The notes: generated from the letters alone by a model not told the origin. DNA of 32,000 nucleotides from Synechocystis sp. PCC 6803 substr. PCC-P (GCF_000284455.1 NC_017039.1:690001-722000); one strand, 5' to 3'; positions 11,453 through 29,773 are shown, counted from the stretch's first letter. A program made the numbers and translations.

Positions 11453-14369
11453 AATTGGATTACTCCTAGTAAAAGTCTATGTTAACTATTGTAACACTTT
11501 TTTAAGGAATGTAACAATGTCCCCTTCTTCCCATGGCACCGCAGTCCAACAGGCGATCGCCGATCAACTGTTGGAAATGATTCTCCAGTCCCAGGATTTA
11601 CATAATGCTTATCGACTGGTGGTGGAAGGATTACAGCGGGGTTTGGGGGTAGACCGGGTGTTGTTGGTGCAAAATGCAGTGTTCCCGAACCGTCAATCCC
11701 GCCTTGTGGCCCAGGCCATCGCTCCGGCCAGGGATATTATGCTTTTGGATGAACCCTGTGCCGATTGTCGTTGGCTCCATCTGCTGGGGCAGCTTCCCCA
11801 CTACGGGCTGTGGACAGTGTGGGAGGGGGAAGGTGAATTTGTCCAACTAGATCCGGTCCAGGGGGAATTTTGTCGAACTTTGGGGATTAAAAGTCTATTG
11901 CATTTGCCCTTGGTGATTAACCAGCGTCATTGGGGAGTTCTCAGTCTCCAATATCTCCACCAAGCCCGGCCCTGGCCCCTGGAGGATCAACAATTTGCCC
12001 AGCGCATTGCCCATCTATTCTGTTTGGGTTTGATGAAAACGGAGCTTTGGATTCATTGTCAGAACCATAAAAATGCGTTGCAGACTGTGGTGGCCGAGGG
12101 CCAGGTCCAAAGGGAAACCTACCTTAAATCCGCCCAACGGGAACGGGCCATTGCTGATGTTATCGATAAAATTCGCTTTGCCCTTGATCTACGCTCCCTC
12201 TTTCAAACTACGGTGACGGAGGTGCGGAAATTGTTGGTAGCAGACCGGGTAATGATTATTAAAGTTAGGCAGAATAAAAATTTTTCCTGGGGGGAAATTC
12301 AGGCGGAAGCCCAAACGGACGACAAGCTATGCCTCTTGCCTCCAAAGGAAAGAGTGCCTTTGTCATCGCGATGGATTGATCATTTTGCCAAGGGATTGAT
12401 TTTAGCCATGGATGACACCGACGATCAAAGGGCGGATTTCGATCAATCAATGTTGGCACTAGCCAAGGCTAATTTGGTGGTGCCCCTCTTTTCTGGCGAT
12501 CGCCTCTGGGGGGTATTGTCGGTGCATCAGTGTGATGGGCCCCGGGTGTGGGAAAGTTCGGACATCGAGTTTGCCCTCAAAATTGCCCTCAACTTAGGGG
12601 TGGCGTTACAACAGGCAGAATTATTGACCGAGTCCCAACGGCGATCGACCGCTCTCCAAAGTGCCCTGGGGGAAGTGGAAGCCCAAAAGGATTATCTCGC
12701 CCGCATTGCGGAGGAAGAACGGGCCCTCACTAGGGTGATTGAAGGCATTCGCCAAACGTTGGAGTTACAGAATATTTTTCGGGCCACCAGTGATGAGGTG
12801 CGTCATTTGCTCAGTTGTGACCGGGTGTTGGTCTATCGCTTTAATCCGGACTGGAGCGGGGAATTTATCCATGAGTCGGTGGCCCAAATGTGGGAACCAC
12901 TGAAAGACTTGCAAAATAATTTCCCCCTCTGGCAAGACACCTATCTCCAGGAAAATGAGGGGGGTCGTTACCGCAACCATGAGAGTTTGGCGGTGGGGGA
13001 CGTGGAAACAGCCGGTTTTACCGATTGCCATTTGGACAATTTGCGCCGGTTTGAAATTCGTGCCTTTTTAACTGTGCCAGTGTTTGTGGGGGAACAACTC
13101 TGGGGCCTGTTGGGGGCCTATCAAAATGGGGCTCCCCGCCATTGGCAAGCGAGGGAAATCCATTTGCTCCATCAAATTGCCAATCAGTTGGGCGTAGCAG
13201 TGTACCAAGCCCAGTTGCTGGCCCGCTTCCAAGAGCAGTCTAAAACCATGGAAAATACTCTGGCTGATCTGACGGCGATCGTTGATAACCTGGCCGATGG
13301 TCTATTGGTGATTGATCTATTTGGTCGCATTACCCGCTACAATCCGGCCCTGTTGGCCATGTTTGATCTGGAGGGCCTAGAACTATTGGGCGCGGGGGTG
13401 GATGCCTATTTCCCCGAGACTTTGAATCAGTTGTTAGCTAAACCGGAAAGGGAAGAGCAAAAACTGGTCACCGCTGATGTGGAATTAAGTCAGGGCCGCC
13501 AAGGACAAGCTTTGATCACTAGCATTACTTCCCATGAAAATGGCTGCGAATATCCCCAATGCCTGGGGGCGGTGATTATGATCCGGGATGTGACCCACGA
13601 GCGGGAAGTGGAGCGGATGAAAACGGATTTCTTGGCCACGGTGTCCCATGAATTACGTACTCCCCTCACTTCTATTTTGGGTTTTGCCACGGTAATTCAG
13701 GATAAATTAAACCGAGTGATTATCCCGGAGTTGGATTTGGCCCAGCCCCACCTTGGCAAGGCTACGGAACGGGTGATGCGGAATTTGGCCATCATTGAGT
13801 CGGAGGCCCAGCGCCTAACTGTTTTGATCAATGATGTGCTAGATATTGCCAAAATGGAAGCAGGACAGGAATCCTGGCAGGAACAACCCTGTGCCATTGG
13901 CCCCATTATTGAACGGGCGATCGCCACCATTACTCCCCAGGCTCAGAAGAAAAATATTAGTTTGCAAGGGGATTTGGAACCGGGTTTGCCTGATTTTATC
14001 GGAGACGAAAACCGGATTTTGCAGGTGGTGCTTAATTTACTCTCCAATGCGGTCAAATTCACCCCTAAGGGTTTAATCACTGCCCGTAGCCACTTTCACC
14101 AAAATTATCTCTGGGTAGAAATTATTGACCATGGCCCCGGTATCCATCCAGCGGACCAGGAGAAAATTTTCGAGCCGTTCCAACAGGGAGGGGGAGATGT
14201 GCTCACTGATAAACCCCAGGGTACGGGGTTAGGATTGCCCATTTGCAAAAAAATTGTTGAACACCACGGCGGTACCATTGGCGTTAATAGTAGTCTGGGT
14301 CGGGGTAGTACTTTCTATTTTTCCTTGCCTGTCCCAGTTCCTGCGGTGGAAACTTCCCCTGCTGTCTGA
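11445..14369 (+). CDS. slr1393: Multi-GAF sensor histidine kinase with a cyanobacteriochrome GAF domain (Slr1393-type)
   Basis: The ORF has three GAF-like regions, a PAS-like segment, an HisKA H-box ([16 protein letters not shown]) and HATPase N/G boxes (LLSNAVKF; [18 protein letters not shown]). The third GAF carries the bilin-binding DxCH motif ([12 protein letters not shown]). Its Cys codon at 13026-13028 is residue 528 of the 974-aa longest ORF, which matches the remembered Cys528. The longest ORF starts at a GTG overlapping the hliA start. ATG 11517 (M25) is a more plausible start. Confidence 0.93.
11478..11515 (-). promoter_or_regulatory. HLR1-type (RpaB-binding) repeat array upstream of hliA
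   Basis: The minus strand reads GTTACATT cc TTAAAAAA gt GTTACAAT ag TTAACATA. These are four 8-mers at 10-bp phasing, matching (G/T)TTACA(T/A)(T/A) at 8/8, 6/8, 8/8 and 7/8. The array ends 25 nt upstream of the hliA ATG. Confidence 0.65.
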
Positions 14370-14491
14370 AGTGGTAATCAGGTTATTTTTCCTTTGGTGC
14401 CCCTGGCCAACAACGGCGATCGCCTACGTTTAAGGTATGGTTGATCATGGTAGTCTAGCGAAGCCCGGCCTTCTTCCAGCCCGCATTACCT

Positions 14492-14947
14492 ATGCAAGAT
14501 TTTGGCGCAGTGTTCCACAACCAAGTGCTTTTGATTTCCCTGGCGGCCTGCTTCCTGGCCCAGGGCATCAAGGCGATCGTGGAAATTTTCCGCAACGGTA
14601 AAATCAATCTCCGTTCCCTCGTTTCCACCGGAGGAATGCCTAGTGCCCATTCTGCCTTAGTGGGGGCCTTGGCCACCGGGGTCGGTTTGCAAAAAGGCTG
14701 GGGCAGTAATGAATTTGCCATTGCTTGTTTATTTGCCGTCATTGTTATGTACGATGCGGCAGGAGTGAGACAGGCTGCCGGTAAACAGGCCCGTATCCTC
14801 AATCAGTTAATTGATGAACTTTTCCAGGAAGATCAAAGCTTGACGGAAGAACGGCTCAAAGAACTGCTGGGCCACACTCCAGTGCAGGTTTTTGCTGGTT
14901 TAGCATTGGGCATTGCCATCGCTTTCTTTGCCGTGCCAGCCCAGTGA
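14492..14947 (+). CDS. Divergent PAP2 / DUF212 membrane protein (acid phosphatase / vanadium haloperoxidase-related)
   Basis: The 151-aa ORF has family-typical motifs: GGMPSAHSALV, MYDAAGVR, GHTPVQV. Confidence 0.75.
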   Translation: MQDFGAVFHNQVLLISLAACFLAQGIKAIVEIFRNGKINLRSLVSTGGMPSAHSALVGALATGVGLQKGWGSNEFAIACLFAVIVMYDAAGVRQAAGKQARILNQLIDELFQEDQSLTEERLKELLGHTPVQVFAGLALGIAIAFFAVPAQ

Positions 14948-16156: not shown

Positions 16157-17233
16157 ATGAAACGTCCCACCCTCTACTGTGCAATTACCGGCCATGGTTT
16201 TGGCCATGCGGTGCGGACTGCTTGCATTGCCCGCCGGGTCCAGGAACTTTGCCCTGATGCGTTGATAATCATGGCTACCCGTAGCCCCCGTTGGTTGCTG
16301 GAGTGTTATTTGGAAAAACCCTTTATTCACCGCCCAGTGGCTTTTGATGTTGGCGTGGTACAGGCAGATAGTTTACAGATGGATGAAAAGGCGACCCTGC
16401 AAGCTTTACAGGATATTTACAAGCGGGAAAATGCCCTGGTGGCCACGGAGTCTAACTATTTACGGAACAATCGGGTGGATCTAGTGCTGGCGGACATTCC
16501 GGCCCTGGCAGTGGCGATCGCCCATCGAGCAAATATTCCCTGTTGGATGAGTAGTAATTTCGGTTGGAATTTTATCTATCGAGATTTTAGTGATCAATTT
16601 GGGGTAGTGATTGAGAAAATTGAACGGGATTATCGCCAATGTGATTTATTATTCCGGTTGCCCTTATCGGAACCGATGGAAATTTTCCCCTATCAAATCC
16701 AAGCTGGCTTACTGGGGGGCGGTCCTCAATATGGGGAGCAGAGTTTAAGAAATACCTTTGCCATTAAAACTGCTAAGGAAAAAACTATTTTGCTCACCTT
16801 TGGGGGTTTAGGTTTAGAGGCTATTCCCTACCAAGTATTAACTCAATTTCCCGACCATCAATTTATTACCTTTGACATCCAAGCTCCTAAGTTAGATAAC
16901 CTGACCATTATCAATGATAAAACCTATCGCCCGGTGGATTTAATGCCCCTTTGCGGACGGGTATTTTCCAAGCCTGGTTTTGGTACCTTTGCTGAAGCGT
17001 TAAAGTTAGAAGTCCCGATTATTTCCCTCACCAGGGATGGTTTTGCGGAAGCGCAAGTTTTACTGGCAGGTTTGCAGAACTACGGAGAGCACCAAATTGT
17101 GCCCCACCAGCAATTTTTCGCCGGCAACTGGGATTTTTTGTTGGAAAGCCCCCAAAAACCTAGGTTGGATCAGAAGTTAGACAAACATGGCGATCGCCAG
17201 ATAGCAGAAAAAATCGTCGCCCAAATTAGTTGA
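16157..17233 (+). CDS. Putative GT-B fold glycosyltransferase (MurG/GT28-like)
   Basis: The 358-aa ORF has an N-terminal ITGHGFGHAVR glycine-rich loop and a C-terminal FSKPGFGTFAEAL...VPII motif, both typical of GT1/GT28 enzymes. The functional call is tentative. Confidence 0.6.
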   Translation: MKRPTLYCAITGHGFGHAVRTACIARRVQELCPDALIIMATRSPRWLLECYLEKPFIHRPVAFDVGVVQADSLQMDEKATLQALQDIYKRENALVATESNYLRNNRVDLVLADIPALAVAIAHRANIPCWMSSNFGWNFIYRDFSDQFGVVIEKIERDYRQCDLLFRLPLSEPMEIFPYQIQAGLLGGGPQYGEQSLRNTFAIKTAKEKTILLTFGGLGLEAIPYQVLTQFPDHQFITFDIQAPKLDNLTIINDKTYRPVDLMPLCGRVFSKPGFGTFAEALKLEVPIISLTRDGFAEAQVLLAGLQNYGEHQIVPHQQFFAGNWDFLLESPQKPRLDQKLDKHGDRQIAEKIVAQIS

Positions 17234-17234
17234 T
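17186..17234 (+). repeat. Left copy of the island-flanking direct repeat (the functional 3' end of the glycosyltransferase gene)
   Basis: These 49 bp align to 20067-20146 with 47/49 identities plus 18-bp and 13-bp indels. The repeat begins at a HIP1 site (GCGATCGC, 17190-17197). Confidence 0.85.
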
Positions 17235-17363
17235 TTTGTCCCCCAACTCGGAAAAAGTCAGGGGATTTTGGTAAACCATAAACCTGGGGTTAACCTCTGG
17301 GAAGCCGTTCATGGTTGTTCATGCCGTATGCTTTTACGATCTAAATGCTATCTGACACCTCCG

Positions 17364-17392
17364 TTGACTTAATAAAACTTAATCCAAATAAT
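17364..17392 (+). promoter_or_regulatory. Candidate sigma70-type promoter facing the cassette array
   Basis: TTGACT at 17364-17369, a 17-nt spacer, then AATAAT at 17387-17392. This sits about 130 bp upstream of the first cassette boundary. It is a sequence match only. Confidence 0.3.
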
Positions 17393-17538
17393 TTGACTTA
17401 GTGGTTCTTTTCAGGCATTCTCTCAGCATTAGAAGGCTGAGTATGGGTTTTAATGCTGTTTATCCTTACAAGTTAAGTGATAAATGTGCATTAAGGATTC
17501 CCATTGCAGTCTAATTACTGGTTAGCTGCAAATAAAAA

Positions 17539-18156
17539 ATGAAAAAACCAGATATTGATGTGTATTGCAATGTAATGGAAGAAATCAAGCGACGAACAGG
17601 CGTTATCGATTTTTTTCTATCTGGTAATGGTCACGCTTTATGTGAACCTACAACACTGGAATCAATTGCGCTGCAAATCAGGAAAATCCTAGAGCTAATA
17701 GCTATGGCGTCACTTGTAGCAAACGAAAAAGAATACAAAAAGGTATATTCCAATTTTGCCAGCGCATGGAATGCAGAATATTTACTAAAAGACTTAGGCA
17801 GAATTAATCCTGATTTTTACCCTAAACCAGTCGTAGAGAAACTTTCTGATGACCCTAAAGTAAAAAATCGCCTAGCAGATCGTGACGAAGACTATCTAAC
17901 CAAAAATGAATTTATAAAAGTTTACAAGAAATGTGGCGCAATCATGCATGCGAGCAATCCGATGGGTCGCAAAATAGGCTATGAATACTACAAAAAGAAC
18001 ATTCCAGAATGGAGACAGAAGATAATAAACCTCCTAAACAACCACCAAATTAAGTTATTTAATCACTCTGGCTTTTATCTAATTCATATGAAAGAAGATC
18101 GTGATGATAAGGTACATTTTTATGAATTCGACCTTGTGCAAACCACAAGCAGCTAA
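17539..18156 (+). CDS. Cassette 1 ORF, hypothetical protein (205 aa), no recognised domain
   Basis: The ATG lies 12 nt after the cassette boundary. The stop codon (18154-18156) is embedded in the attC inverse core. The gene is AT-rich and the protein is Lys/Glu/Tyr-rich. Confidence 0.7.
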   Translation: MKKPDIDVYCNVMEEIKRRTGVIDFFLSGNGHALCEPTTLESIALQIRKILELIAMASLVANEKEYKKVYSNFASAWNAEYLLKDLGRINPDFYPKPVVEKLSDDPKVKNRLADRDEDYLTKNEFIKVYKKCGAIMHASNPMGRKIGYEYYKKNIPEWRQKIINLLNNHQIKLFNHSGFYLIHMKEDRDDKVHFYEFDLVQTTSS

Positions 18157-18222
18157 CAAAACGCTCGTTCGAGCGCAAACTACAATGCGCTTCGTTTGCG
18201 CTGCACAGCTTCAACGTTCGGC
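18151..18222 (+). other. attC site 1 (72 bp)
   Basis: R'' is AGCTAAC and R' is GTTCGGC. The stem GCGCAAAC (18173-18180) pairs with GTTTGCGC (18194-18201) and extends with bulged G18171 and C18166. About 5-nt unpaired spacers sit next to the R boxes. The L''-like GTTCGAGC resembles class 1 attC L boxes. Confidence 0.72.
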
Positions 18223-18290
18223 GGGCTTGCTTGCCAGCACTCTTTTCATTAAAATAGTATAGCAGTCTGTATTATCGGCATTCAACTCTG

Positions 18291-18914
18291 ATGGATAATC
18301 TAACCGACTTTGCATTCAAGCTCGGGAAGGTCGTTTACAAAGTTATTCGCGATGTCGAGGCATCAAAAGATGATTCGACCAAGCTCATCCAAGACCTTGG
18401 CGGCTTAAGCGGTGAAAAGATACTACTTCAGAAAATCGCCAAGTTTTGGAATCAGCAAGACCGCTGGGATAGACCCGATGGCCTCGTCATAGTAACTAGT
18501 CACAGACTTGTCTTTTTAGCTAAAATGAAGACGGTCGCATCAACAACAGATTATCTCAGCTTTCCATTGGGGTTGATTGACGAACTTGAAGCTACCACTG
18601 TATCTTGGGTCAGTCCAGCAATTGCATTTCACGTTAATTCGACGAAGTATATGTTCACATTCTTTGCCGGATCGGATGAAGTCGTTGATGCGATCCGATC
18701 GGCCAAGGTAACACTAGAATCAATATCCATTAATTCGCATTCAGATCCCTCAAGCACTGGGCGAGATATTCCTGTGCAACTCCTACCCGACATGATTCGA
18801 TTTCTATGCCCAGATTGTGAGGCTTCAGTCAGAGTTAGGCGTAAACAAGCAGGAAGGCTAGGAAAATGCCCCGAATGCGGTGGTGTTTCACGGATCCCAA
18901 TCGATGGAAGATAG
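18291..18914 (+). CDS. Cassette 2 ORF: PH/GRAM-like domain protein with a C-terminal CxxC...CxxC zinc ribbon (207 aa)
   Basis: The central segment (PDGLVIVTSHRLVFLAKMK ... YLSFPLGLIDELE ... YMFTFF) resembles bacterial PH/GRAM-like folds. The C-terminus is FLCPDCEASVRVRRKQAGRLGKCPECGGVSRIP. The domain call rests on my pattern recognition only. Confidence 0.7.
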   Translation: MDNLTDFAFKLGKVVYKVIRDVEASKDDSTKLIQDLGGLSGEKILLQKIAKFWNQQDRWDRPDGLVIVTSHRLVFLAKMKTVASTTDYLSFPLGLIDELEATTVSWVSPAIAFHVNSTKYMFTFFAGSDEVVDAIRSAKVTLESISINSHSDPSSTGRDIPVQLLPDMIRFLCPDCEASVRVRRKQAGRLGKCPECGGVSRIPIDGR

Positions 18915-19036
18915 AATGCCTTAGTCAACTTAAAGACATCCCAGATTGTTAGAAAGTCTAACCACCCAATGAGAACTAGGCGAAGGTTTTGTCAAGTCCT
19001 GAAGATGCCGTTCACCAGATCTATCTCATCATTGCT

Positions 19037-19127
19037 GCCGAACAAGCCCCTTGAGTGGACAGTCCGCCACCGGTCTTTTGCATTACAATTTTAGGGTTAC
19101 CACCTGCCCCTAGGGCCAGCGTTAGCA
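19037..19127 (+). other. attC site 2 (91 bp)
   Basis: R'' GCCGAAC is the exact reverse complement of GTTCGGC at the cassette 2 start. R' is GTTAGCA. Internal pairing is weaker (CCCT 19048-19051 with AGGG 19112-19115; GTGG 19055-19058 with CCAC 19100-19103). The site lies 122 bp after the ORF stop. Confidence 0.55.
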
Positions 19128-19146
19128 TTCAGAAAATCCACGAGAG

Positions 19147-19899
19147 GTGCGTCGCCCAATACAAATTCATCCTTTAATACACATTCAAAGCATGAATACT
19201 ATTGATTTTGAAAGAGTGATCAGAGCACTTATCAAAAGTGGATTTCTCTTTTCAGCTGCCGACTTCAATGAGCGCAGGCGTGCAGCTGATAAAGTAGCTA
19301 CATCTGGATTGATTGAAAAGACAAATTTTTGGTGCAACGTTGCAATAAAAGGTGCGATACCTGTTATCGAATCATCTTTCGACGTAGACATCCCTTCAAA
19401 TCAGTTCCGATTCAAGCCTTCTATGCAGGATTTCAATGTTAAAGAAGATGAATTGAGTGCAATGCTCTTAAAACTTGGGATGAATATGGATGCGGTTGCA
19501 TTTCGATATGCTTACTCCCAGCCAGTATTCGTAGGTGTGAAGTTTGCAGCATCTCTTTCGCCCGAAGCTCGAAGATCTCTTTTTGAGTCGTTTGATCGTC
19601 AGATGCTTAACTGTCTCTCCCTTACTTCTTCAATGAAAGCAGGTTTTGGAAGCGTAAAGATGTCAGTAACTGGATTCGTTTTATGGATATTTACGAATCA
19701 AAGCGGAGCAAATAATTTCAGCTCTGTGGAAAAGGAAAGCTTGAGAAAGATGCATTTTTGGGAGAAGGTTAATTCACTGTCCTGGGTCGTCGATCTTGAA
19801 ACGAACTCAATAGCTAAACACAAAGGGCTGCCAATCATTCTTGATTCAGTCTTTAATGTAAAGGCATTTGAGGATTCTCTGAAGCTTGACGAATACTAA
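19147..19899 (+). CDS. Cassette 3 ORF, hypothetical protein (250 aa from GTG 19147; 235 aa from ATG 19192)
   Basis: This is the only long ORF in cassette 3. The stop codon (19897-19899) lies inside the attC inverse core. I recognise no domain. Confidence 0.7.
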   Translation: MRRPIQIHPLIHIQSMNTIDFERVIRALIKSGFLFSAADFNERRRAADKVATSGLIEKTNFWCNVAIKGAIPVIESSFDVDIPSNQFRFKPSMQDFNVKEDELSAMLLKLGMNMDAVAFRYAYSQPVFVGVKFAASLSPEARRSLFESFDRQMLNCLSLTSSMKAGFGSVKMSVTGFVLWIFTNQSGANNFSSVEKESLRKMHFWEKVNSLSWVVDLETNSIAKHKGLPIILDSVFNVKAFEDSLKLDEY

Positions 19900-19981
19900 C
19901 AACCGAGCTGCACCGGAACGCCATAAGCTGTTTGGTTGGGTTACAAAGGTTATCTGCGTCTGGTGAGCTTAGTCGTTAGGC
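19894..19981 (+). other. attC site 3 (88 bp)
   Basis: R'' is TACTAAC and R' is the canonical GTTAGGC. AGCT(G)CACC (19906-19914) pairs with GGTGAGCT (19962-19969), leaving G19910 extrahelical. The imperfect stem continues inward. The 5-nt spacers are AACCG and TAGTC. Confidence 0.72.
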
Positions 19982-20066
19982 CCCATACAAAATTTAAGAC
20001 CTACCCACCAGAACTTCTTTGTCACCAGATTCTTACTGTAAGCGCCTCCGTGCTTTTGCAATCGTC

Positions 20067-20146
20067 CATGGCGATCGCCAGCAACGTTATGGTCGCCAGA
20101 TAGCAGAAAAAATTGTTGCCCAAATTGGCTAATGATATTAGTTGAT
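20067..20146 (+). pseudogene. Right copy of the flanking direct repeat: a displaced, still in-frame duplicate of the glycosyltransferase 3' end
   Basis: It encodes HGDRQQRYGRQIAEKIVAQIG*, versus HGDRQIAEKIVAQIS* at 17186-17233. Both substitutions in the shared Ile-Val codons are synonymous. It begins at HIP1 (20071-20078), and no homology exists upstream of 20067. Its last 7 bp overlap the cofG 3' end. Confidence 0.8.
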
Positions 20147-24566: not shown

Positions 24567-26255
24567 TTAGTCTCCCAATAATTCAAGGAATTGGGCTTCT
24601 GATAACTGCGCGATGCCGAGCTTCTGGGCTTTTTTCAGCTTTGCCCCCGGAGCTTTGCCCACCACAATGTAATCGGTTTTACCGCTGGGAGTGCCAGTGC
24701 ATTCAGCCCCCACATTTTGGAGTCTGGTTTTAGCTTCCTCTCGGTTCATGGCGTTGAGGGTACCGAGAATGACAACTTTTTTCTCAGCTAGGGGATGGGC
24801 ACCTTCCTCATTACTGGGGACAGTGGCTACTGGATCGGTGATGGTTTCTGTTTCCACCGTAGGGGCAACATCTTCGCTGGTAGCAACTGGGGCAACTGTT
24901 TTATTTTCCCTCGGCGGCTCAGTTTTTTCCACCGCTTTAACTTGCTTTTCCTCTTGGTCCAAAACCTCGTCAACAGCTTTAGCAGTGGATTTTTTCGCTG
25001 GAGACGCAGGAGCTTTGGTTGCTTGGGCTGCTGGTGGGACTGGAGTCGGTTCCGGTTCTGGTTCAACCTTTTCCGCTTGAACTGATTTGGGCGATTCTTG
25101 TTTAACCTCAACGGTTACCGGAGGAGAAGGGGATACCACAGGTGCTTCCTGGGCTGGTGCAGTTGCAACTGCTTTAGTTTTTTCCGGCACCTCAGAAGGA
25201 GGCTCGCCTTTAGCCTTAGCTAAGTTTTCCTGTAGGGCCGCCAATTCTTGTTGAAGTTGGGTTACTTGCCCCTGGGCAGATTGCAGGGCAGCGGCCTGTT
25301 CTTTTTTCTCAGTTTTAAGGCGATCGCCTTCGGCCTGGGTAGTTTCCAGTTTGACTTTTAATTCGGCATTGGCCAGGGCTAGTTCTTTTTGCGCTTCCTC
25401 TAGTTGATTGAGCTTAGCCGTGAGTTGGCTTCGTTCCCCTTGCCATTGTTCTTCCTGTTGGCCTAGGCGATCGAGGGCGGCCTGTAGATTTTCTGCTTGG
25501 GTCTGGGCTGACTGACTTTGTTGCCTTGCGGTCTGTAATTCCTGTTGAACTTGATCCCGTTCCGCAGTCAGTTGTCGTACCTGCTCTTCCCATTGGGACG
25601 CCTGACTATTCCATTGAGCTTGTTCTTGCTCATGTCTTTGTTGCCAGAGCTTTTCCTGGGATGCTAAACGTTGCTCGATCGCCTTAGCTTGATTTTGTTC
25701 TACATAGCTGAGTTGGTCACTCAACTGTTGATTGCGAGTCACTAAAGAATTCAACTGAACCAGTTTAGGCCGAGTTTCCGCCACTTCATTGACCGCTTGC
25801 TTAAGGCGATCGGACAAGTTGGTATTTTCCTGGAGCAATTCTTGATTGAGCTTTTGCAGACCAACAAATTTTTCGCTTTGGATGTCGTCATAGTGGGCCA
25901 ACTGATGTTGCAGAGCGGCTACCATTTTTTCTTGGGCTTGGTAATTTTCTGTCAACTGATTCCTTTCCGCCAAGGCATTTTCCAAGGAAGCCTGGACGGA
26001 TTGCAAATCTTTTTCTAAACGACGCAATTTTCCCTTGGCATGGATGACAGCTTCTGGAGATTCCCCATCGTTTTCGGGGGCAACTTCTTTTACCGCCGGA
26101 GTTCCAGAGCCAGCGATTAAAGTGGGAGGCTGATCGGAGGGTTGGGATTGGGCCAGTTTTTTTTCTAGGGCGCGACGACTATTCCAGACATATATGCCGC
26201 TGCCTAAGGCCAAAACCAATCCGCTTAAGGGGTAGCTCAATTCCAATGGGGTCAT
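24567..26255 (-). CDS. Membrane-anchored long coiled-coil protein with a Pro-rich linker and C-terminal BRCT-like domain
   Basis: The 562-aa ORF has an N-terminal TM helix (LSGLVLALGSGIYVW) and about 300 aa of Q/E/L-rich heptad-like sequence. A PE/PV-rich linker follows. The C-terminal roughly 75 aa (KKVVILGTLNAMNREEAKTRLQNVGAECTGTPSGKTDYIVVGKAPGAKLKKAQKLGI) resemble the BRCT domain of NAD-dependent DNA ligases. Confidence 0.8.
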   Translation of the reverse strand: MTPLELSYPLSGLVLALGSGIYVWNSRRALEKKLAQSQPSDQPPTLIAGSGTPAVKEVAPENDGESPEAVIHAKGKLRRLEKDLQSVQASLENALAERNQLTENYQAQEKMVAALQHQLAHYDDIQSEKFVGLQKLNQELLQENTNLSDRLKQAVNEVAETRPKLVQLNSLVTRNQQLSDQLSYVEQNQAKAIEQRLASQEKLWQQRHEQEQAQWNSQASQWEEQVRQLTAERDQVQQELQTARQQSQSAQTQAENLQAALDRLGQQEEQWQGERSQLTAKLNQLEEAQKELALANAELKVKLETTQAEGDRLKTEKKEQAAALQSAQGQVTQLQQELAALQENLAKAKGEPPSEVPEKTKAVATAPAQEAPVVSPSPPVTVEVKQESPKSVQAEKVEPEPEPTPVPPAAQATKAPASPAKKSTAKAVDEVLDQEEKQVKAVEKTEPPRENKTVAPVATSEDVAPTVETETITDPVATVPSNEEGAHPLAEKKVVILGTLNAMNREEAKTRLQNVGAECTGTPSGKTDYIVVGKAPGAKLKKAQKLGIAQLSEAQFLELLGD

Positions 26256-26410: not shown

Positions 26411-29400
26411 CTAAAATTCCCCGCCATGGGAATTTACTATTTTTTGTCCTATTTCTAGATCAATTAATCCATTGCTCTGTTCAATGTGCTTAATCAATTC
26501 CCTATAGGCTGGAGCGAATTGCAACTGGGATGAATTACCTAAAATGACTAGCTTACTTTTTGCCCTGGAAATACTGACCAATAATTTCCGGTCTGTTCCC
26601 TGGCGATCGCCATCAGCGATGCTTTGAATATTTTTAACCTGCTTAGACCAAGAAATGGTAGTGGAAAAAATAATTAATTCTCTTTCATCCCCCTGGAATC
26701 TTTCCACCGTATCCACCACAATGGAATCCCTTGAAAAATCAGCGCCAGCAAAAATTTTTTCCAATTGTTGATTAATTTCCGCTACCTGAGCCCGAAAAGG
26801 AGCAATAATGCCAATTTCTGCCATTGGCAACAGTTTGTTTTCCCAGTAAGTTTTGACGATGGTCGCCGCAATGATGGCTTCGTTAGTATTCTTGCGCTGA
26901 ATACTAGTTTCCGATGGGGTTTCAATAAAAATAGTTCTACTCTTACTCAATTTACTTAACAAGTCATTGTCATTATTTTCGTAACTTGACTCAATTTTTC
27001 GCTGTTCCTGTGTTTGCTCCACCAAAGGGCGATCGTAATGATGGGCTATCAATGAAGCAATATCTCTATGCATACGATAATGCTCAGTTAGTTGTCCGTA
27101 ACAATGATTCCATCCCTTATTTTTGGCATTATTAATTAATCTTTCAAACAAAGATATTCTCAAATCGCTAATGTTAATGGCATAGCGTCGAAATGGCTCA
27201 ACTTCAACTCGACATTCCTCTTCATTTTGAGTAATTACTGCTGGCAGTTGCTTTTGATCACCAATCAAGACAAATTTGTTGAATAAGACCACTATTCCGG
27301 CTAGATCAGCCTCCGTTAATTGGGAAGCTTCATCAATGATTAGCTGATCAAATTCACCAACAAACTCCCTGAGTAATAAATATTTATCTTTAAACGTGGA
27401 AACAGTTGTGACAAATACTTGATTTTCTTGTAAATACTTCCGCCAAAGATCCGCATTATCTCCAGTTAATTTTTCGGCCAGCAAACTTTCATCAACTACA
27501 GTTTTGTTACCTAAACGTAGGTAATCTATTAGCTCTCCATAGCGTGGGGATTTAAGGGCTTTACAAATCTGTTCCACTGCCTTATTCGTAAAAGCCAGGA
27601 TAAAAATATTTTTCTTGTTTAATTTAAGTAAATTTTGTACGTAATTAACCAAAAATATACTAGTCTTCCCCGTACCTGGTGGTCCTTGTAGTAAATAATA
27701 ATGCTTAGCCTCGAGAGCCTGGCAAATAATTTGATTTTGATCATTGCTCAGGTAAATATTTACCTGATAATCTATTAACGCTTTTTGTGGCTCCAAATGC
27801 CCTAAAAGTAATTGTTTTTTCTCCATGGAACAAGACAATACTTCCAACAAACAGACAATACTACTCCAGTAGTTGCGCTCGAAAATATCCGGCTCTAAGG
27901 CCCAAAAATTATATTGCTCGATAAATGAATAGTCATTTTGCTTGTTAAATAAAGAAACTATTATTTGATTCTGATTAATTCCCTTGATCGAACCTTTAAA
28001 AATATGTTGTTTTAACGGTTCATATACACCATTTATTTTGGGATGAATAATTACTATGTCACCAGAACGGAATGAATGGGGCACATCAGTCTGAGTCAAT
28101 GCTAATGAAAGATAACTTTTCTCTTTGTCAACCTTGATTAGTTTAAGATCATAAATTAAGCGATAATTATTTTGTTTAACATTAAAATTATCTAGCCACA
28201 AACTAGCAAACCCTGTCGATGTTTGATGCTTATCTTCCAACTCAGATTGCTGATGATCTGATATTTTATTGTTAATTAATTCCCGTAGAATGAACGAGAG
28301 TAGCTGTTGATAATAGTTTGTCGTCAACTTTTCTGGCTGGTAGTTTTGTTGAAAACGCTTTAATCGTCGTTGATTATATTCTGGTAACTCTCCAGCACCA
28401 TCAGATTTAAGTTTATCTAAGCTAATAAAGTTGCCCGCAGCTAATTGGTAAATTTTGCTAACAATTTCATTTCTGATTTTAATCAACTCATTTTTTTCTT
28501 GAGATTCGCTAACAATATTTCTGCGGGGCTGATCTGATTTTGAGTAAAATATCTCCTTGTTACCCACATAATTTCCGTAGGTACTTTCCAGCATCATGTT
28601 ATATGCCACCACCTGCATTTTATGATTTTTCCATTCTCTACCTGGATAGGGAGCGCCACCACTTTTTAGCTCAATAATATCCTTAGATCCGTTTGAGTCG
28701 ATAGTTAATAAATCTAGTCTTCCTTGTAGACCATAATGTTGTGAAAAAAATGTAGGTTCAATCCAAATTCTTAAGTTTTCTGCCTGTAATCTCTGCACTA
28801 ATTGACTGATGTTAGGTAGATGTTCTTGAACAATCGACGTTTGAATATTTGTCATCTCCTGTTCGCCAAGATAAGCAGATCTCAGAGCATCTGACTTTTT
28901 GTAATCTGTAAAAATTTGAGCAATATTAATTTGCTTATTTCTGACTAGCTCATCTAGGCAGTAACCTACAATGGTTCCTTTAAAAGCTGCAGCACCAGCT
29001 AATTCTCCTACTAGTTTGGTTAGCCAAAAAATATCACTGCTCGTATTTTTGTTGCCAAAACACTCACTGATGGCGCTGGCATCTACCAGAAAGTCCGGCT
29101 CAATAACGATTAATGATTCTGATTTGGCCTGATATTTATTTTCAGCTACTGGCACCAAATTATGGCAAGCGATTAATGTATCTTCCTTCAATATGTCAAT
29201 CAAATAAAATAAATGGGGAGCATTAAACCAATCACACTCTATGACAATGTTTGTTTGTAGGTTTTCTAAATCAAAACCGTAGAGATGAAATGCCCGCTTT
29301 GATTGACTTCTGTGGTGCCCTGTGTATAAAAGCTTCAGGTACTTGGTAGACGGCGATCGCCTTGCTTGAAAAAGCTTGGTAAAATATTGATTGTTATATT

Positions 29401-29773
29401 TACTATTGTCAAAAGTGAATCCCAGTAGTTCGGAATTTTCAGTTGCTTGCAGGCATAATTTTTGGAGCAACAAGATTCCTTGCTCAATGGCAACTTGGTT
29501 GACTTTTTCAGAAAATCCCCTGCGGATAAATTTCCGGAAAGCTTCAAAATTGCTTACATCTTCTTCGTCTAGATTTATTTTGCTAATACAATACCTAAAT
29601 TTTGCATAAAAATTTCTGAAAACTATATTTTCAGGTTCAGTAAAAGCTTTGATGAACTGATAAAAAAGCTTAGAGATTTCATAAAATTTTTCCTTTAAGC
29701 TCAGCTTAGCTTCACCAAGTAAGTATAAACTTTCGCATATTCCTGAAGCTTTTTGCTTATCGTTCATCAACAA
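26411..29773 (-). CDS. Fusion protein: RecB-type PD-(D/E)XK nuclease plus SF1B (Upf1/Dna2-like, AAA_11/AAA_12) helicase, 1120 aa
   Basis: Nuclease motifs are GRLDLL (D354, nt 28714-28706), IIELK (E368-K370, nt 28672-28664) and QVVAY (nt 28615-28601). Helicase motifs are the Walker [10 protein letters not shown] (nt 27688-27662), IIDEASQ, GDQKQLPAV, HYRMHRDI, VERFQGDERELIIFS and VSISRAKSKLVILG. The gene is markedly AT-rich. The track start is a TTG, and ATG 29767 is probably the real start. Confidence 0.9.
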   Translation of the reverse strand: MLMNDKQKASGICESLYLLGEAKLSLKEKFYEISKLFYQFIKAFTEPENIVFRNFYAKFRYCISKINLDEEDVSNFEAFRKFIRRGFSEKVNQVAIEQGILLLQKLCLQATENSELLGFTFDNSKYNNQYFTKLFQARRSPSTKYLKLLYTGHHRSQSKRAFHLYGFDLENLQTNIVIECDWFNAPHLFYLIDILKEDTLIACHNLVPVAENKYQAKSESLIVIEPDFLVDASAISECFGNKNTSSDIFWLTKLVGELAGAAAFKGTIVGYCLDELVRNKQINIAQIFTDYKKSDALRSAYLGEQEMTNIQTSIVQEHLPNISQLVQRLQAENLRIWIEPTFFSQHYGLQGRLDLLTIDSNGSKDIIELKSGGAPYPGREWKNHKMQVVAYNMMLESTYGNYVGNKEIFYSKSDQPRRNIVSESQEKNELIKIRNEIVSKIYQLAAGNFISLDKLKSDGAGELPEYNQRRLKRFQQNYQPEKLTTNYYQQLLSFILRELINNKISDHQQSELEDKHQTSTGFASLWLDNFNVKQNNYRLIYDLKLIKVDKEKSYLSLALTQTDVPHSFRSGDIVIIHPKINGVYEPLKQHIFKGSIKGINQNQIIVSLFNKQNDYSFIEQYNFWALEPDIFERNYWSSIVCLLEVLSCSMEKKQLLLGHLEPQKALIDYQVNIYLSNDQNQIICQALEAKHYYLLQGPPGTGKTSIFLVNYVQNLLKLNKKNIFILAFTNKAVEQICKALKSPRYGELIDYLRLGNKTVVDESLLAEKLTGDNADLWRKYLQENQVFVTTVSTFKDKYLLLREFVGEFDQLIIDEASQLTEADLAGIVVLFNKFVLIGDQKQLPAVITQNEEECRVEVEPFRRYAINISDLRISLFERLINNAKNKGWNHCYGQLTEHYRMHRDIASLIAHHYDRPLVEQTQEQRKIESSYENNDNDLLSKLSKSRTIFIETPSETSIQRKNTNEAIIAATIVKTYWENKLLPMAEIGIIAPFRAQVAEINQQLEKIFAGADFSRDSIVVDTVERFQGDERELIIFSTTISWSKQVKNIQSIADGDRQGTDRKLLVSISRAKSKLVILGNSSQLQFAPAYRELIKHIEQSNGLIDLEIGQKIVNSHGGEF

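Follow-up and report, generated by a model that had tools for sequence, protein, structure and literature searches.

The lone nuclease-helicase gene sll1582 of Synechocystis sp. PCC 6803 encodes a Dna2-like protein without the iron-sulfur staple

Does a lone, AT-rich gene that joins a nuclease to a helicase defend its cell against foreign nucleic acid, or does it look after the cell's own chromosome? The question is raised by a gene in a 32,000-nucleotide stretch of DNA from Synechocystis sp. PCC 6803 substr. PCC-P, a leading model cyanobacterium (NC_017039.1:690001-722000; this whole stretch is hereafter the window, with positions counted from its first letter). The gene sits between the genes for a Wza-type exporter and a BRCT protein, with cpcBAC2C1D and serS upstream. 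A first-pass annotation, made from the sequence alone, had singled it out as a candidate single-gene nucleic-acid defence, comparable to the anti-phage protein Nhi or to Dna2. Here we find strong support for homology to Dna2 over the whole core of the protein, describe the large family to which it belongs, which lacks Dna2's iron-sulfur (Fe-S) staple, and propose that it may serve in the processing of DNA ends.

The open reading frame (ORF) that had been reported on the minus strand at 26411-29773 is real; read from its TTG start it encodes 1120 aa. An ATG at 29767, two codons downstream of the TTG at 29773, gives 1118 aa; annotated orthologues have this same length, and exactly this protein is called on a 3.57-Mb Synechocystis chromosome. 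All residue numbers below refer to the 1118-aa form, so that D354 and K370 of the first-pass annotation become D352 and K368. The gene is sll1582. This follows from its neighbours: the 562-aa BRCT ORF of the window is sll1583 (it matches the translation of an internal sll1583 fragment in a supplementary table of PMC7125299), sll1581 is gumB/wza, and a preprint places sll1582 next to sll1581. The gene and the parts of its product are laid out as follows.

26411 to 29767, minus strand: the whole nuclease-helicase gene, identified as sll1582 by its position; translation from the ATG at 29767 gives 1118 aa, and an in-frame TTG at 29773 would add two residues.
29372 to 29767, minus strand: N-terminal helical bundle, residues 1-132, from AlphaFold2 (AF2) models; poorly conserved and missing in some members of the family.
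29102 to 29344, minus strand: oligonucleotide/oligosaccharide-binding (OB)-like beta module, residues 142-222, directly before the nuclease; strands in both AF2 models, and Foldseek.
28340 to 29101, minus strand: RecB/Cas4/Dna2-type PD-(D/E)XK nuclease without an iron staple, residues 223-476; Pfam, Cas4 models and the DNA2 alignment.
28601 to 28714, minus strand: catalytic core of the nuclease, D352 (GRLD), E366-L-K368 (IELKS) and Q385-x3-Y389 (QVVAY), from the translation.
27803 to 28327, minus strand: stalk helices and beta-barrel, an Upf1/Dna2-type 1B-like insert, residues 481-655; model secondary structure and the DNA2 profile alignment.
26468 to 27745, minus strand: helicase lobes 1A and 2A of superfamily 1B (SF1B), Upf1/Dna2-type, residues 675-1100; Pfam AAA_11/AAA_12 and matches in the PDB.

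Both enzymatic halves are readily recognised. Pfam places PDDEXK_1 at residues 305-449 and the AAA_11/AAA_12 pair at 675-1081, and nucleotides 28714-28601 translate to DLL...DIIELKSG...QVVAY, while the Walker A motif GPPGTGKT is read from 27662-27685 on the minus strand. The nuclease domain opens with a nearly invariant EPDFLxDAxAIxEC at residues 223-236, and residues 223-340 form its N-terminal part. In an alignment of 73 full-length homologues, D225, D272, E337-P338, G346, G349-R350, D352, E366-L-K368-S, Q385 and Y389 of the nuclease are invariant, as are Walker A (including K701) and the other helicase motifs. Since the catalytic and Walker residues do not vary, both active sites are maintained. 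All motifs quoted by the first-pass annotation for a RecB-family nuclease and a complete SF1B helicase are thus borne out, together with the two nuclease residues it had picked out for mutation. The helicase finds DNA2, Upf1, Ighmbp2 and Sen1 in the PDB by both sequence and fold, the sequence match to Ighmbp2 spanning residues 565-743. An AF2 model of the full protein, built on the family alignment, has a mean per-residue confidence (pLDDT) of 88.9 and a predicted template-modelling score (pTM) of 0.87.

Which of these relatives is the closest in kind? The family profile, from residue 257 to 1099, aligns to residues 150-1044 of mouse DNA2 in one continuous stretch (E 8.6e-71) that spans the nuclease, the barrel and both helicase lobes, and that sets GRLD, ELKS and QxxxY on DNA2's GKIDV, LELKTGK and QVVLY. 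With the AF2 model as query, Foldseek gives Dna2 (5EAN) as the top PDB match, over 1099 columns (E 8.8e-45, TM-scores 0.63/0.67), whereas the matches to Upf1, Ighmbp2 and Sen1 are limited to the helicase half. Sequence identity to Dna2 is about 18%, and the Pfam Dna2 model (PF08696) matches residues 216-329 below threshold (17.5 bits against a cutoff of 22.4); precomputed annotations show a hit to this model in several of the family's more distant members. Together, these results strongly support the view that the protein is a full-length Dna2 homologue over its whole core, as the first-pass annotation had suspected.

The same comparison bears on the idea that the enzyme acts on RNA, its helicase and nuclease serving in RNA surveillance or decay in the manner of Upf1, Ighmbp2, Sen1 or the Mokosh protein MkoA. 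The helicase core does resemble Upf1, Ighmbp2 and Sen1/SETX, and it is also matched by MkoA RNA-helicase models and by TIGR00376, the IGHMBP2 family model. However, the latter reaches only 153 bits against a cutoff of 349, the best match, and the only one to span nuclease, barrel and helicase, is a DNA enzyme, and the nuclease is of the RecB/Cas4/AddB type that processes DNA ends, with its QxxxY motif. We consider an RNA substrate very unlikely.

The body plan follows the order of Dna2 (mouse DNA2; PDB 5EAN, 5EAW and 5EAX): a putative OB-like fold, a RecB-type nuclease, the stalk and beta-barrel, and the SF1B lobes 1A and 2A, with the catalytic D, ExK and QxxxY and the Walker motifs kept. The main departure is in the nuclease. 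Dna2, AddB and Bad (a Dna2-like enzyme of Geobacillus stearothermophilus) are considered to require their Fe-S cluster for the nuclease domain to fold. In Dna2, AddB, Cas4 and Bad, the nuclease is held by a 4Fe-4S cluster on one N-terminal cysteine and a C-x2-C-x5-C triad (PMC7430649, PMC4716839). In the Synechocystis family this staple is gone: a C-x2-C-x(4-6)-C triad in the nuclease region was found in none of the 73 sequences, and DNA2's CxxCxxxxxC segment aligns to a segment of the family that is free of cysteine. The only conserved cysteine in the nuclease region is C236 (present in 96% of the 73 sequences), which lies near the expected site of Dna2's first Fe-S ligand and may be a vestige of it; we infer this from position, as the DNA2 alignment starts after C236. 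A family of about 780 clusters that has kept the architecture without the cluster is a natural experiment on what replaces the iron staple.

The N-terminal region also differs. About 340 residues had been left unrecognised and put forward as a possible novel sensing module, and this now holds for the first 132 alone: residues 223 onward belong to the nuclease, and residues 142-222 are predicted with high confidence, in both AF2 models, to form a separate beta module. Foldseek matches for this module are consistently OB folds (Teb1 OB-B, RPA70, SSB, POT1, HIN and baculovirus LEF-3), with weak statistics; the best PDB match, Teb1 OB-B, has an E-value of 3e-3 (TMt 0.65), and none is at or below 1e-3. 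The module is therefore best described as OB-like, and it is placed as Dna2's OB domain is. In Dna2, the OB domain just before the nuclease binds RPA rather than DNA (PMC4716839). The helical bundle of about 130 residues stands where Dna2 has a short RPA-binding helix, alpha1, and the Synechocystis protein, being bacterial, has no RPA to bind. Foldseek searches of the PDB and viral libraries gave no convincing structural match for the bundle, which is absent from one group of the family alignment (P0097).

How widespread is the family? An exhaustive search with residues 1-660, which run from the N-terminus through nuclease and barrel, returned 965 clusters (at 50% identity) at E <= 1e-3 and 780 at E <= 1e-10, nearly all of them about 1100 aa long and of the same architecture. 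Copies in Synechocystis species are 79-93% identical to that of PCC 6803, and those in two further cyanobacterial lineages 66% and 49%. Outside cyanobacteria, the only named sources among the matches listed belong to the FCB group (Bacteroidota/Ignavibacteria/Cloacimonadota), with identities of about 45% in Chitinophagaceae and about 28-34% in Saprospiraceae, Prevotellaceae, Bacteroidaceae, Kapabacteria and Cloacimonadota. A scan of the genome collection with generic helicase motifs contributed loci to what follows; these stand for the matches listed rather than for a census of presence and absence. Mobile carriage was also considered and set aside. The phage collection held no family match, the plasmid collection three weak matches on Bacteroidales replicons, and IMG/VR a single 40-residue fragment, so there is no sign in these collections that the gene travels on phages or plasmids.

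The gene has a different compositional history in the two groups of bacteria. At the FCB loci its GC content is mostly within about 0.03 of that of the flanks, and the GC content at third codon positions (GC3) agrees as well (gene/flank 0.66/0.64, 0.49/0.49 and 0.48/0.52). In all four cyanobacterial loci, by contrast, the gene is 9-14 GC points below its flanks, and its GC3 is 0.31-0.33 against 0.47-0.51, or 0.16 against 0.29 in the second lineage (locus L069). PCC 6803 itself fits this pattern: as the first-pass annotation had noted, the gene is AT-richer than its surroundings (GC 0.357 against 0.484 in the remaining window; GC3 0.33 against 0.47 in the flanks). In the FCB group the gene behaves as one that is native and inherited vertically, whereas in cyanobacteria its composition is foreign. 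In a neighbour-joining tree, the cyanobacterial copies form one clade, nested within Chitinophagaceae-like sequences that are themselves nested in the FCB radiation. Apparently, then, a Bacteroidota-type copy entered cyanobacteria in a single transfer, a provisional reading since the tree carries no support values. At three FCB loci (L016, L019 and L011; Prevotellaceae, Bacteroidales and Bacteroidia), the gene lies 7-9 GC points above its flanks, the opposite of the cyanobacterial pattern, which hints at transfers inside the FCB group too.

A second compositional mark had been drawn from the HIP1 palindrome, which is missing from the interior of the gene between two sites.

26603 to 26610, no strand assigned: HIP1 site (GCGATCGC), the limit of the HIP1-free interior toward the gene's 3' end (site scan).
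29353 to 29360, no strand assigned: HIP1 site, the corresponding limit toward the gene's 5' end (site scan).

The 2742 bp between the sites at 26603 and 29353 confirm the reported 2.7-kb interval. As a mark of foreignness, however, it is real but unexceptional and carries little weight alone, because a longer HIP1-free gap exists elsewhere in the window (17197-20071). No tRNA genes or bracketing repeats were found flanking the gene, nor any insertion scar. A scan for promoters and terminators gave counts no higher than in shuffled controls. A palindromic hairpin at 26414-26435 (AAATTCCC-CGCCAT-GGGAATTT) lies directly 5' of the stop codon at 26411-26413 and spans the last codons of the gene; it is no clear terminator for the gene, since the T-run follows on the plus strand only.

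Foreign composition might suggest a recent arrival, or a functionless remnant of horizontal transfer that is decaying or silenced. A GC3 of 0.33 against 0.47 in the flanks would suit such a remnant, as would a literature search that turned up no phenotype. However, the 1118-aa frame reads through uninterrupted both in orthologues as distant as 64-66% identity and in PCC 6803 itself, across many independent assemblies (181 index blocks). None of the catalytic residues varies, and an sll1582 transcript is measurable in one RNA sequencing (RNA-seq) table. (In one knock-down transcriptome, its expression change was non-significant, with a log2 fold change of -0.64 and an adjusted p of 0.09.) Between PCC 6803 and Synechocystis sp. 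PCC 7339, the ratio of nonsynonymous to synonymous substitution rates (dN/dS) is about 0.08. We give a remnant hardly any credence. The same pair of genomes gives a dN of 0.12 for the gene, against 0.014-0.05 for most flanking core genes; the gene is under purifying selection, yet it evolves three to four times faster than the core genes around it.

Nor does a recent transfer that has not been ameliorated fit the data, given that the low GC3 persists in three syntenic cyanobacterial orthologues although synonymous sites between these are saturated. The gene thus appears to be kept AT-rich, instead of still bearing the mark of the transfer. Possibly selection favours rare codons, or holds down the expression of a hazardous nuclease; silencing of some form is another possibility.

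We also looked for what the gene is kept with. In PCC 6803, in PCC 7339 (79% identity) and in the more distant cyanobacterium with 66% identity, it is the next gene after wza, in the same orientation. In Cloacimonadota it stands in the order ftsY, gene, DUF3467, secDF, with its start overlapping the stop of ftsY. Two Cloacimonadota species share the block dus, GAF-HD, trmB, ftsY, gene and DUF3467. Identity between the two is 52-68% for the proteins on either side but 43% for the nuclease-helicase itself, the same faster evolution as in Synechocystis. Such synteny, in Synechocystis as in Cloacimonadota, is how a chromosomal gene behaves that is inherited vertically, and unlike a gene of a strain-variable island. 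Of nine independent neighbourhoods annotated with Pfam, most are housekeeping contexts: cpc/serS/wza; ftsY with secDF; dagK, uvrB and msrAB; MFS, PP2C, a kinase and FtsW; VWA/MoxR with sugar-nucleotide enzymes; and a polysaccharide-utilisation locus. The reported lack of partner genes is upheld on a larger sample, as no neighbour recurs across 26 loci in an all-against-all comparison of neighbouring ORFs, barring the synteny of close relatives. The small ORFs just upstream of the gene in three Bacteroidota loci were considered as a hidden partner and rejected, being mutually unrelated.

Because of these housekeeping contexts, and because the composition of the gene is native in the FCB group, we propose a role in chromosome maintenance, namely the processing of 5' ends or flaps in recombination repair, to which we give an even chance. 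Substrate and polarity are inferred here from mouse Dna2 and Bad. By analogy with these, the enzyme would load on a free end of single-stranded DNA (ssDNA), the strand then being threaded along the nuclease or through it. The helicase motor would move 5' to 3' while the nuclease cuts ssDNA, so that at double-strand breaks or stalled forks 5' ends or flaps would be resected. More speculatively, the OB-like module, and perhaps the bundle too, might contact bacterial SSB as the alpha1-OB region of Dna2 contacts RPA.

There is a place for such an enzyme in PCC 6803. A survey of the strain lists recB(Ec), recC, recJ and recQ(Ec) among the missing genes (PMC5101192), which would leave a niche for a 5'-resection enzyme; sll1582 is not in the catalogue of that survey. 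For the resection of DNA ends in recombination in PCC 6803, sll1582 is a directly testable, uncharacterised candidate. Its activity could also influence the efficiency of transformation and genome engineering. If the gene simply encodes a repair enzyme, this would be a solid improvement of the annotation rather than a surprise.

Several observations weigh against a role in chromosome maintenance. The survey is inconsistent on recJ, using sll1354 as the cyanobacterial recJ reference yet listing recJcy as missing (PMC5101192). A literature search found no study or phenotype of sll1582, its sole mention, in a preprint, being as a neighbour not to disturb. Loss of the iron staple could alter the formation of the DNA tunnel, in which case threading is not guaranteed. 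The distribution is patchy (about 780 clusters at 50% identity, with two cyanobacterial lineages in non-exhaustive searches). Horizontal transfer, AT-richness and a protein that evolves three to four times faster than its surroundings are also typical of defence genes. Two loci are variable or defence-like, that of Flavitalea with a DUF6443-Tae4 toxin, PLDc_2 and DUF4062, and that of the second cyanobacterium with HicAB, PIN and an IS605 TnpB. Lastly, PADLOC models run on 126 neighbouring ORFs from 15 further FCB loci found one reverse transcriptase, one DolB, two or three type II methyltransferases and several unvalidated PDC candidates; these matches are scattered, none of them in more than two members, and come from a small sample with no background control.

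Several of these points would suit equally well a single-gene nucleic-acid defence, Nhi-like in function without belonging to the Nhi family. It would recognise free ssDNA ends or replication intermediates, rolling-circle ones among them, in phage, plasmid or incoming transforming DNA and degrade these, and its N-terminal bundle would sense or regulate. Such a system might look like this one, a partnerless gene whose single product is both nuclease and helicase; Nhi is the precedent for a nuclease and an SF1B helicase that defend alone. Horizontal acquisition and foreign composition in cyanobacteria, the fast evolution of the protein, and an N-terminus that is variable or missing in some members would also be expected. 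So would the two neighbourhoods with toxin, toxin-antitoxin, phospholipase D (PLD), DUF4062 or TnpB genes and the scattered PADLOC matches in the FCB group, to which an Eco57I-type enzyme 6 kb upstream of the gene in L067 may be added.

The wider context, however, does not support defence. We compared the protein with the PADLOC and NCBIfam models of defence families, judged against their curated cutoffs, and no model matches beyond a generic helicase core or the Cas4 fold. The neighbourhoods are mostly housekeeping, and no defence family recurs among them. The gene is fixed and syntenic across the genus Synechocystis and in Cloacimonadota species rather than strain-variable, its GC content is native in most FCB genomes, and it lacks insertion scars, flanking tRNA genes and any match among phages, with only the three weak plasmid matches and the IMG/VR fragment on the other side. 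The association with defence islands, plasmids or phages that characterises Nhi was not seen. We therefore regard defence as a minority possibility, and conclude for annotation that a lone, AT-rich nuclease with an Upf1-like helicase is not enough to call a defence gene. The first-pass annotation had also reasoned that homologues conserved and syntenic throughout cyanobacteria would imply housekeeping repair; in our non-exhaustive protein searches, which were not counted across genomes, the cyanobacterial copies are confined to the Synechocystis clade and one other lineage.

Returning to chromosome maintenance, a fuller account may be sketched, which we offer tentatively and think rather doubtful as a whole. 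The family would be an unrecognised bacterial lineage of Dna2 that kept the whole body plan while replacing the staple by protein alone. It would have been an ancestral chromosome-maintenance enzyme of the FCB group and, transferred once, would have become the missing 5'-end resection enzyme of Synechocystis, held AT-rich by selection, perhaps so that a dangerous nuclease is expressed at a low level.

Some further features of the window and of the related loci were recorded. Within the window, 17000-20100 is a second stretch of low GC content (0.40-0.43) and holds the longest HIP1-free gap (17197-20071). Its three plus-strand ORFs (17539-18156, 18291-18914 and 19147-19899) have no Pfam match, and PCC 7339 has a glyoxalase gene, a 171-aa ORF and a DDE transposase in this position instead, so the stretch looks like a strain-variable islet. 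The downstream neighbour of the nuclease-helicase, sll1583 (24567-26255, minus strand), encodes an unusual protein that starts with a hydrophobic helix and continues through a long coiled coil rich in Q and E and a linker rich in P, T and A to a BRCT domain at its C-terminus; CRISPR interference (CRISPRi) tables label it 'lig2'. It is fast-evolving (72% identity and a dN/dS of 0.16 between PCC 6803 and PCC 7339), and the cyanobacterium whose nuclease-helicase is 66% identical has no copy of it at this position. In that cyanobacterium (locus L005, 8423-9943), the upstream wza is called as three consecutive ORFs of 286, 86 and 112 aa, which suggests a disrupted exporter gene or assembly errors. 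At L069, a different locus with the 49%-identity copy, the gene stands beside an IS605-family OrfB/TnpB with a Cas12f-like TNB domain (features at 1171-2523 and 13402-14598). Upstream of it are the toxin-antitoxin modules HicAB and PIN, together with a large protein of the AAA_35-WD40 kind. Finally, a fused 519-aa Abhydrolase_2 and Radical_SAM ORF at 18071-19630 of L002, an assembly of one sequencing run, corresponds to two genes (204 and 313 aa) in the same interval of the reference L001, from the same strain background; this is either a substrain difference or a difference in assembly or gene calling.

How does the protein compare with known systems? Nhi (SERP2475), which is alike in concept only, is a protein of 606 aa that combines an HsdR-like nuclease, within its first 230 residues, with a DUF2075/PF09848 helicase of the Dda/Schlafen-like kind and a glyoxalase-like C-terminal domain (Nhi preprint). 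Its homologues, often located near defence genes and in some cases on plasmids or phages, come from Firmicutes, Bacteroidetes and Proteobacteria (Nhi preprint). In both proteins one polypeptide carries a PD-(D/E)XK nuclease ahead of a helicase of the SF1B class, and Nhi acts alone. The likeness ends there. At 1118 aa, the Synechocystis protein is about twice as long, its nuclease (223-476) is of the Cas4/RecB/Dna2 type with QxxxY, and its Upf1/Dna2-type helicase (AAA_11/AAA_12) comes with stalk and barrel. PF09848 falls short of its cutoff of 24 bits, scoring 13.8 (E 0.034), and with size and nuclease type also wrong, we do not assign the protein to Nhi, as had been contemplated. Among the best 25 of the 27 PADLOC families matched at E <= 0.1 (the others weaker than E 0.016), no model bears the name of Nhi, the presence of such a model in PADLOC-DB 2.0.0 being unconfirmed.

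With Cas4, AddB and RecB the protein shares the nuclease core fold and its motifs, including QxxxY, and Cas4 models match residues 338-437; AdnB- and UvrD-type nuclease domains match weakly in profile comparison. Cas4 and AddB, however, carry the four-cysteine iron staple, and Cas4 is a small stand-alone protein of CRISPR adaptation. Cas4 itself was rejected, as TIGR00372 gives 37.5 bits against a cutoff of 65 and the nuclease domain is joined to a helicase and lacks Fe-S cysteines; no cas genes were found in any family neighbourhood examined.

The defence proteins MkoA/MkoC, Hhe, ProA and PLuB have in common with the Synechocystis protein an Upf1-like SF1B helicase core. Their matches are limited to the helicase, with or without the barrel, and leave the nuclease and the N-terminus uncovered. 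MkoA matches residues 774-1101 alone (E 3e-52) and MkoC residues 804-1089, both within the helicase core, while PLuB_AAA reaches 195 bits over residues 532-1097 against a cutoff of 999, ProA 59 bits against 1500 and Hhe 31 against 2000. Mokosh was set aside for want of a full-length MkoA/MkoC match and of a PLD domain in the Synechocystis protein. Mokosh, Hhe, ProA and PLuB, together with DpdJ, Gabija GajB and Druantia DruK, were all rejected as assignments, matching only in the helicase core or Cas4 fold and far under their cutoffs. A literature search for PLuB returned nothing relevant.

This leaves Bad of Geobacillus stearothermophilus, the only biochemically characterised bacterial Dna2-like enzyme, which is an ssDNA endonuclease and a 5' to 3' translocase/helicase (PMC7430649). 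Like the Synechocystis protein, it is a bacterial single polypeptide of RecB-family nuclease and SF1B helicase with a sporadic distribution, and by this analogy it would be the best functional model that we have. By its published description, Bad is set apart by its 1245 aa, by an Fe-S cluster on four cysteines, and by the 665 residues between nuclease D150 and Walker A K815, against 349 here (D352 to K701). Bad-type proteins have been reported in Firmicutes, Proteobacteria, Mycobacteria and Euryarchaea (PMC7430649). They were found by a search for the Fe-S signature, and a family free of Fe-S would therefore have escaped it. The kind of enzyme is thus already known; the family of sll1582 is an uncharacterised Fe-S-free variant among the Dna2-like nuclease-helicases.

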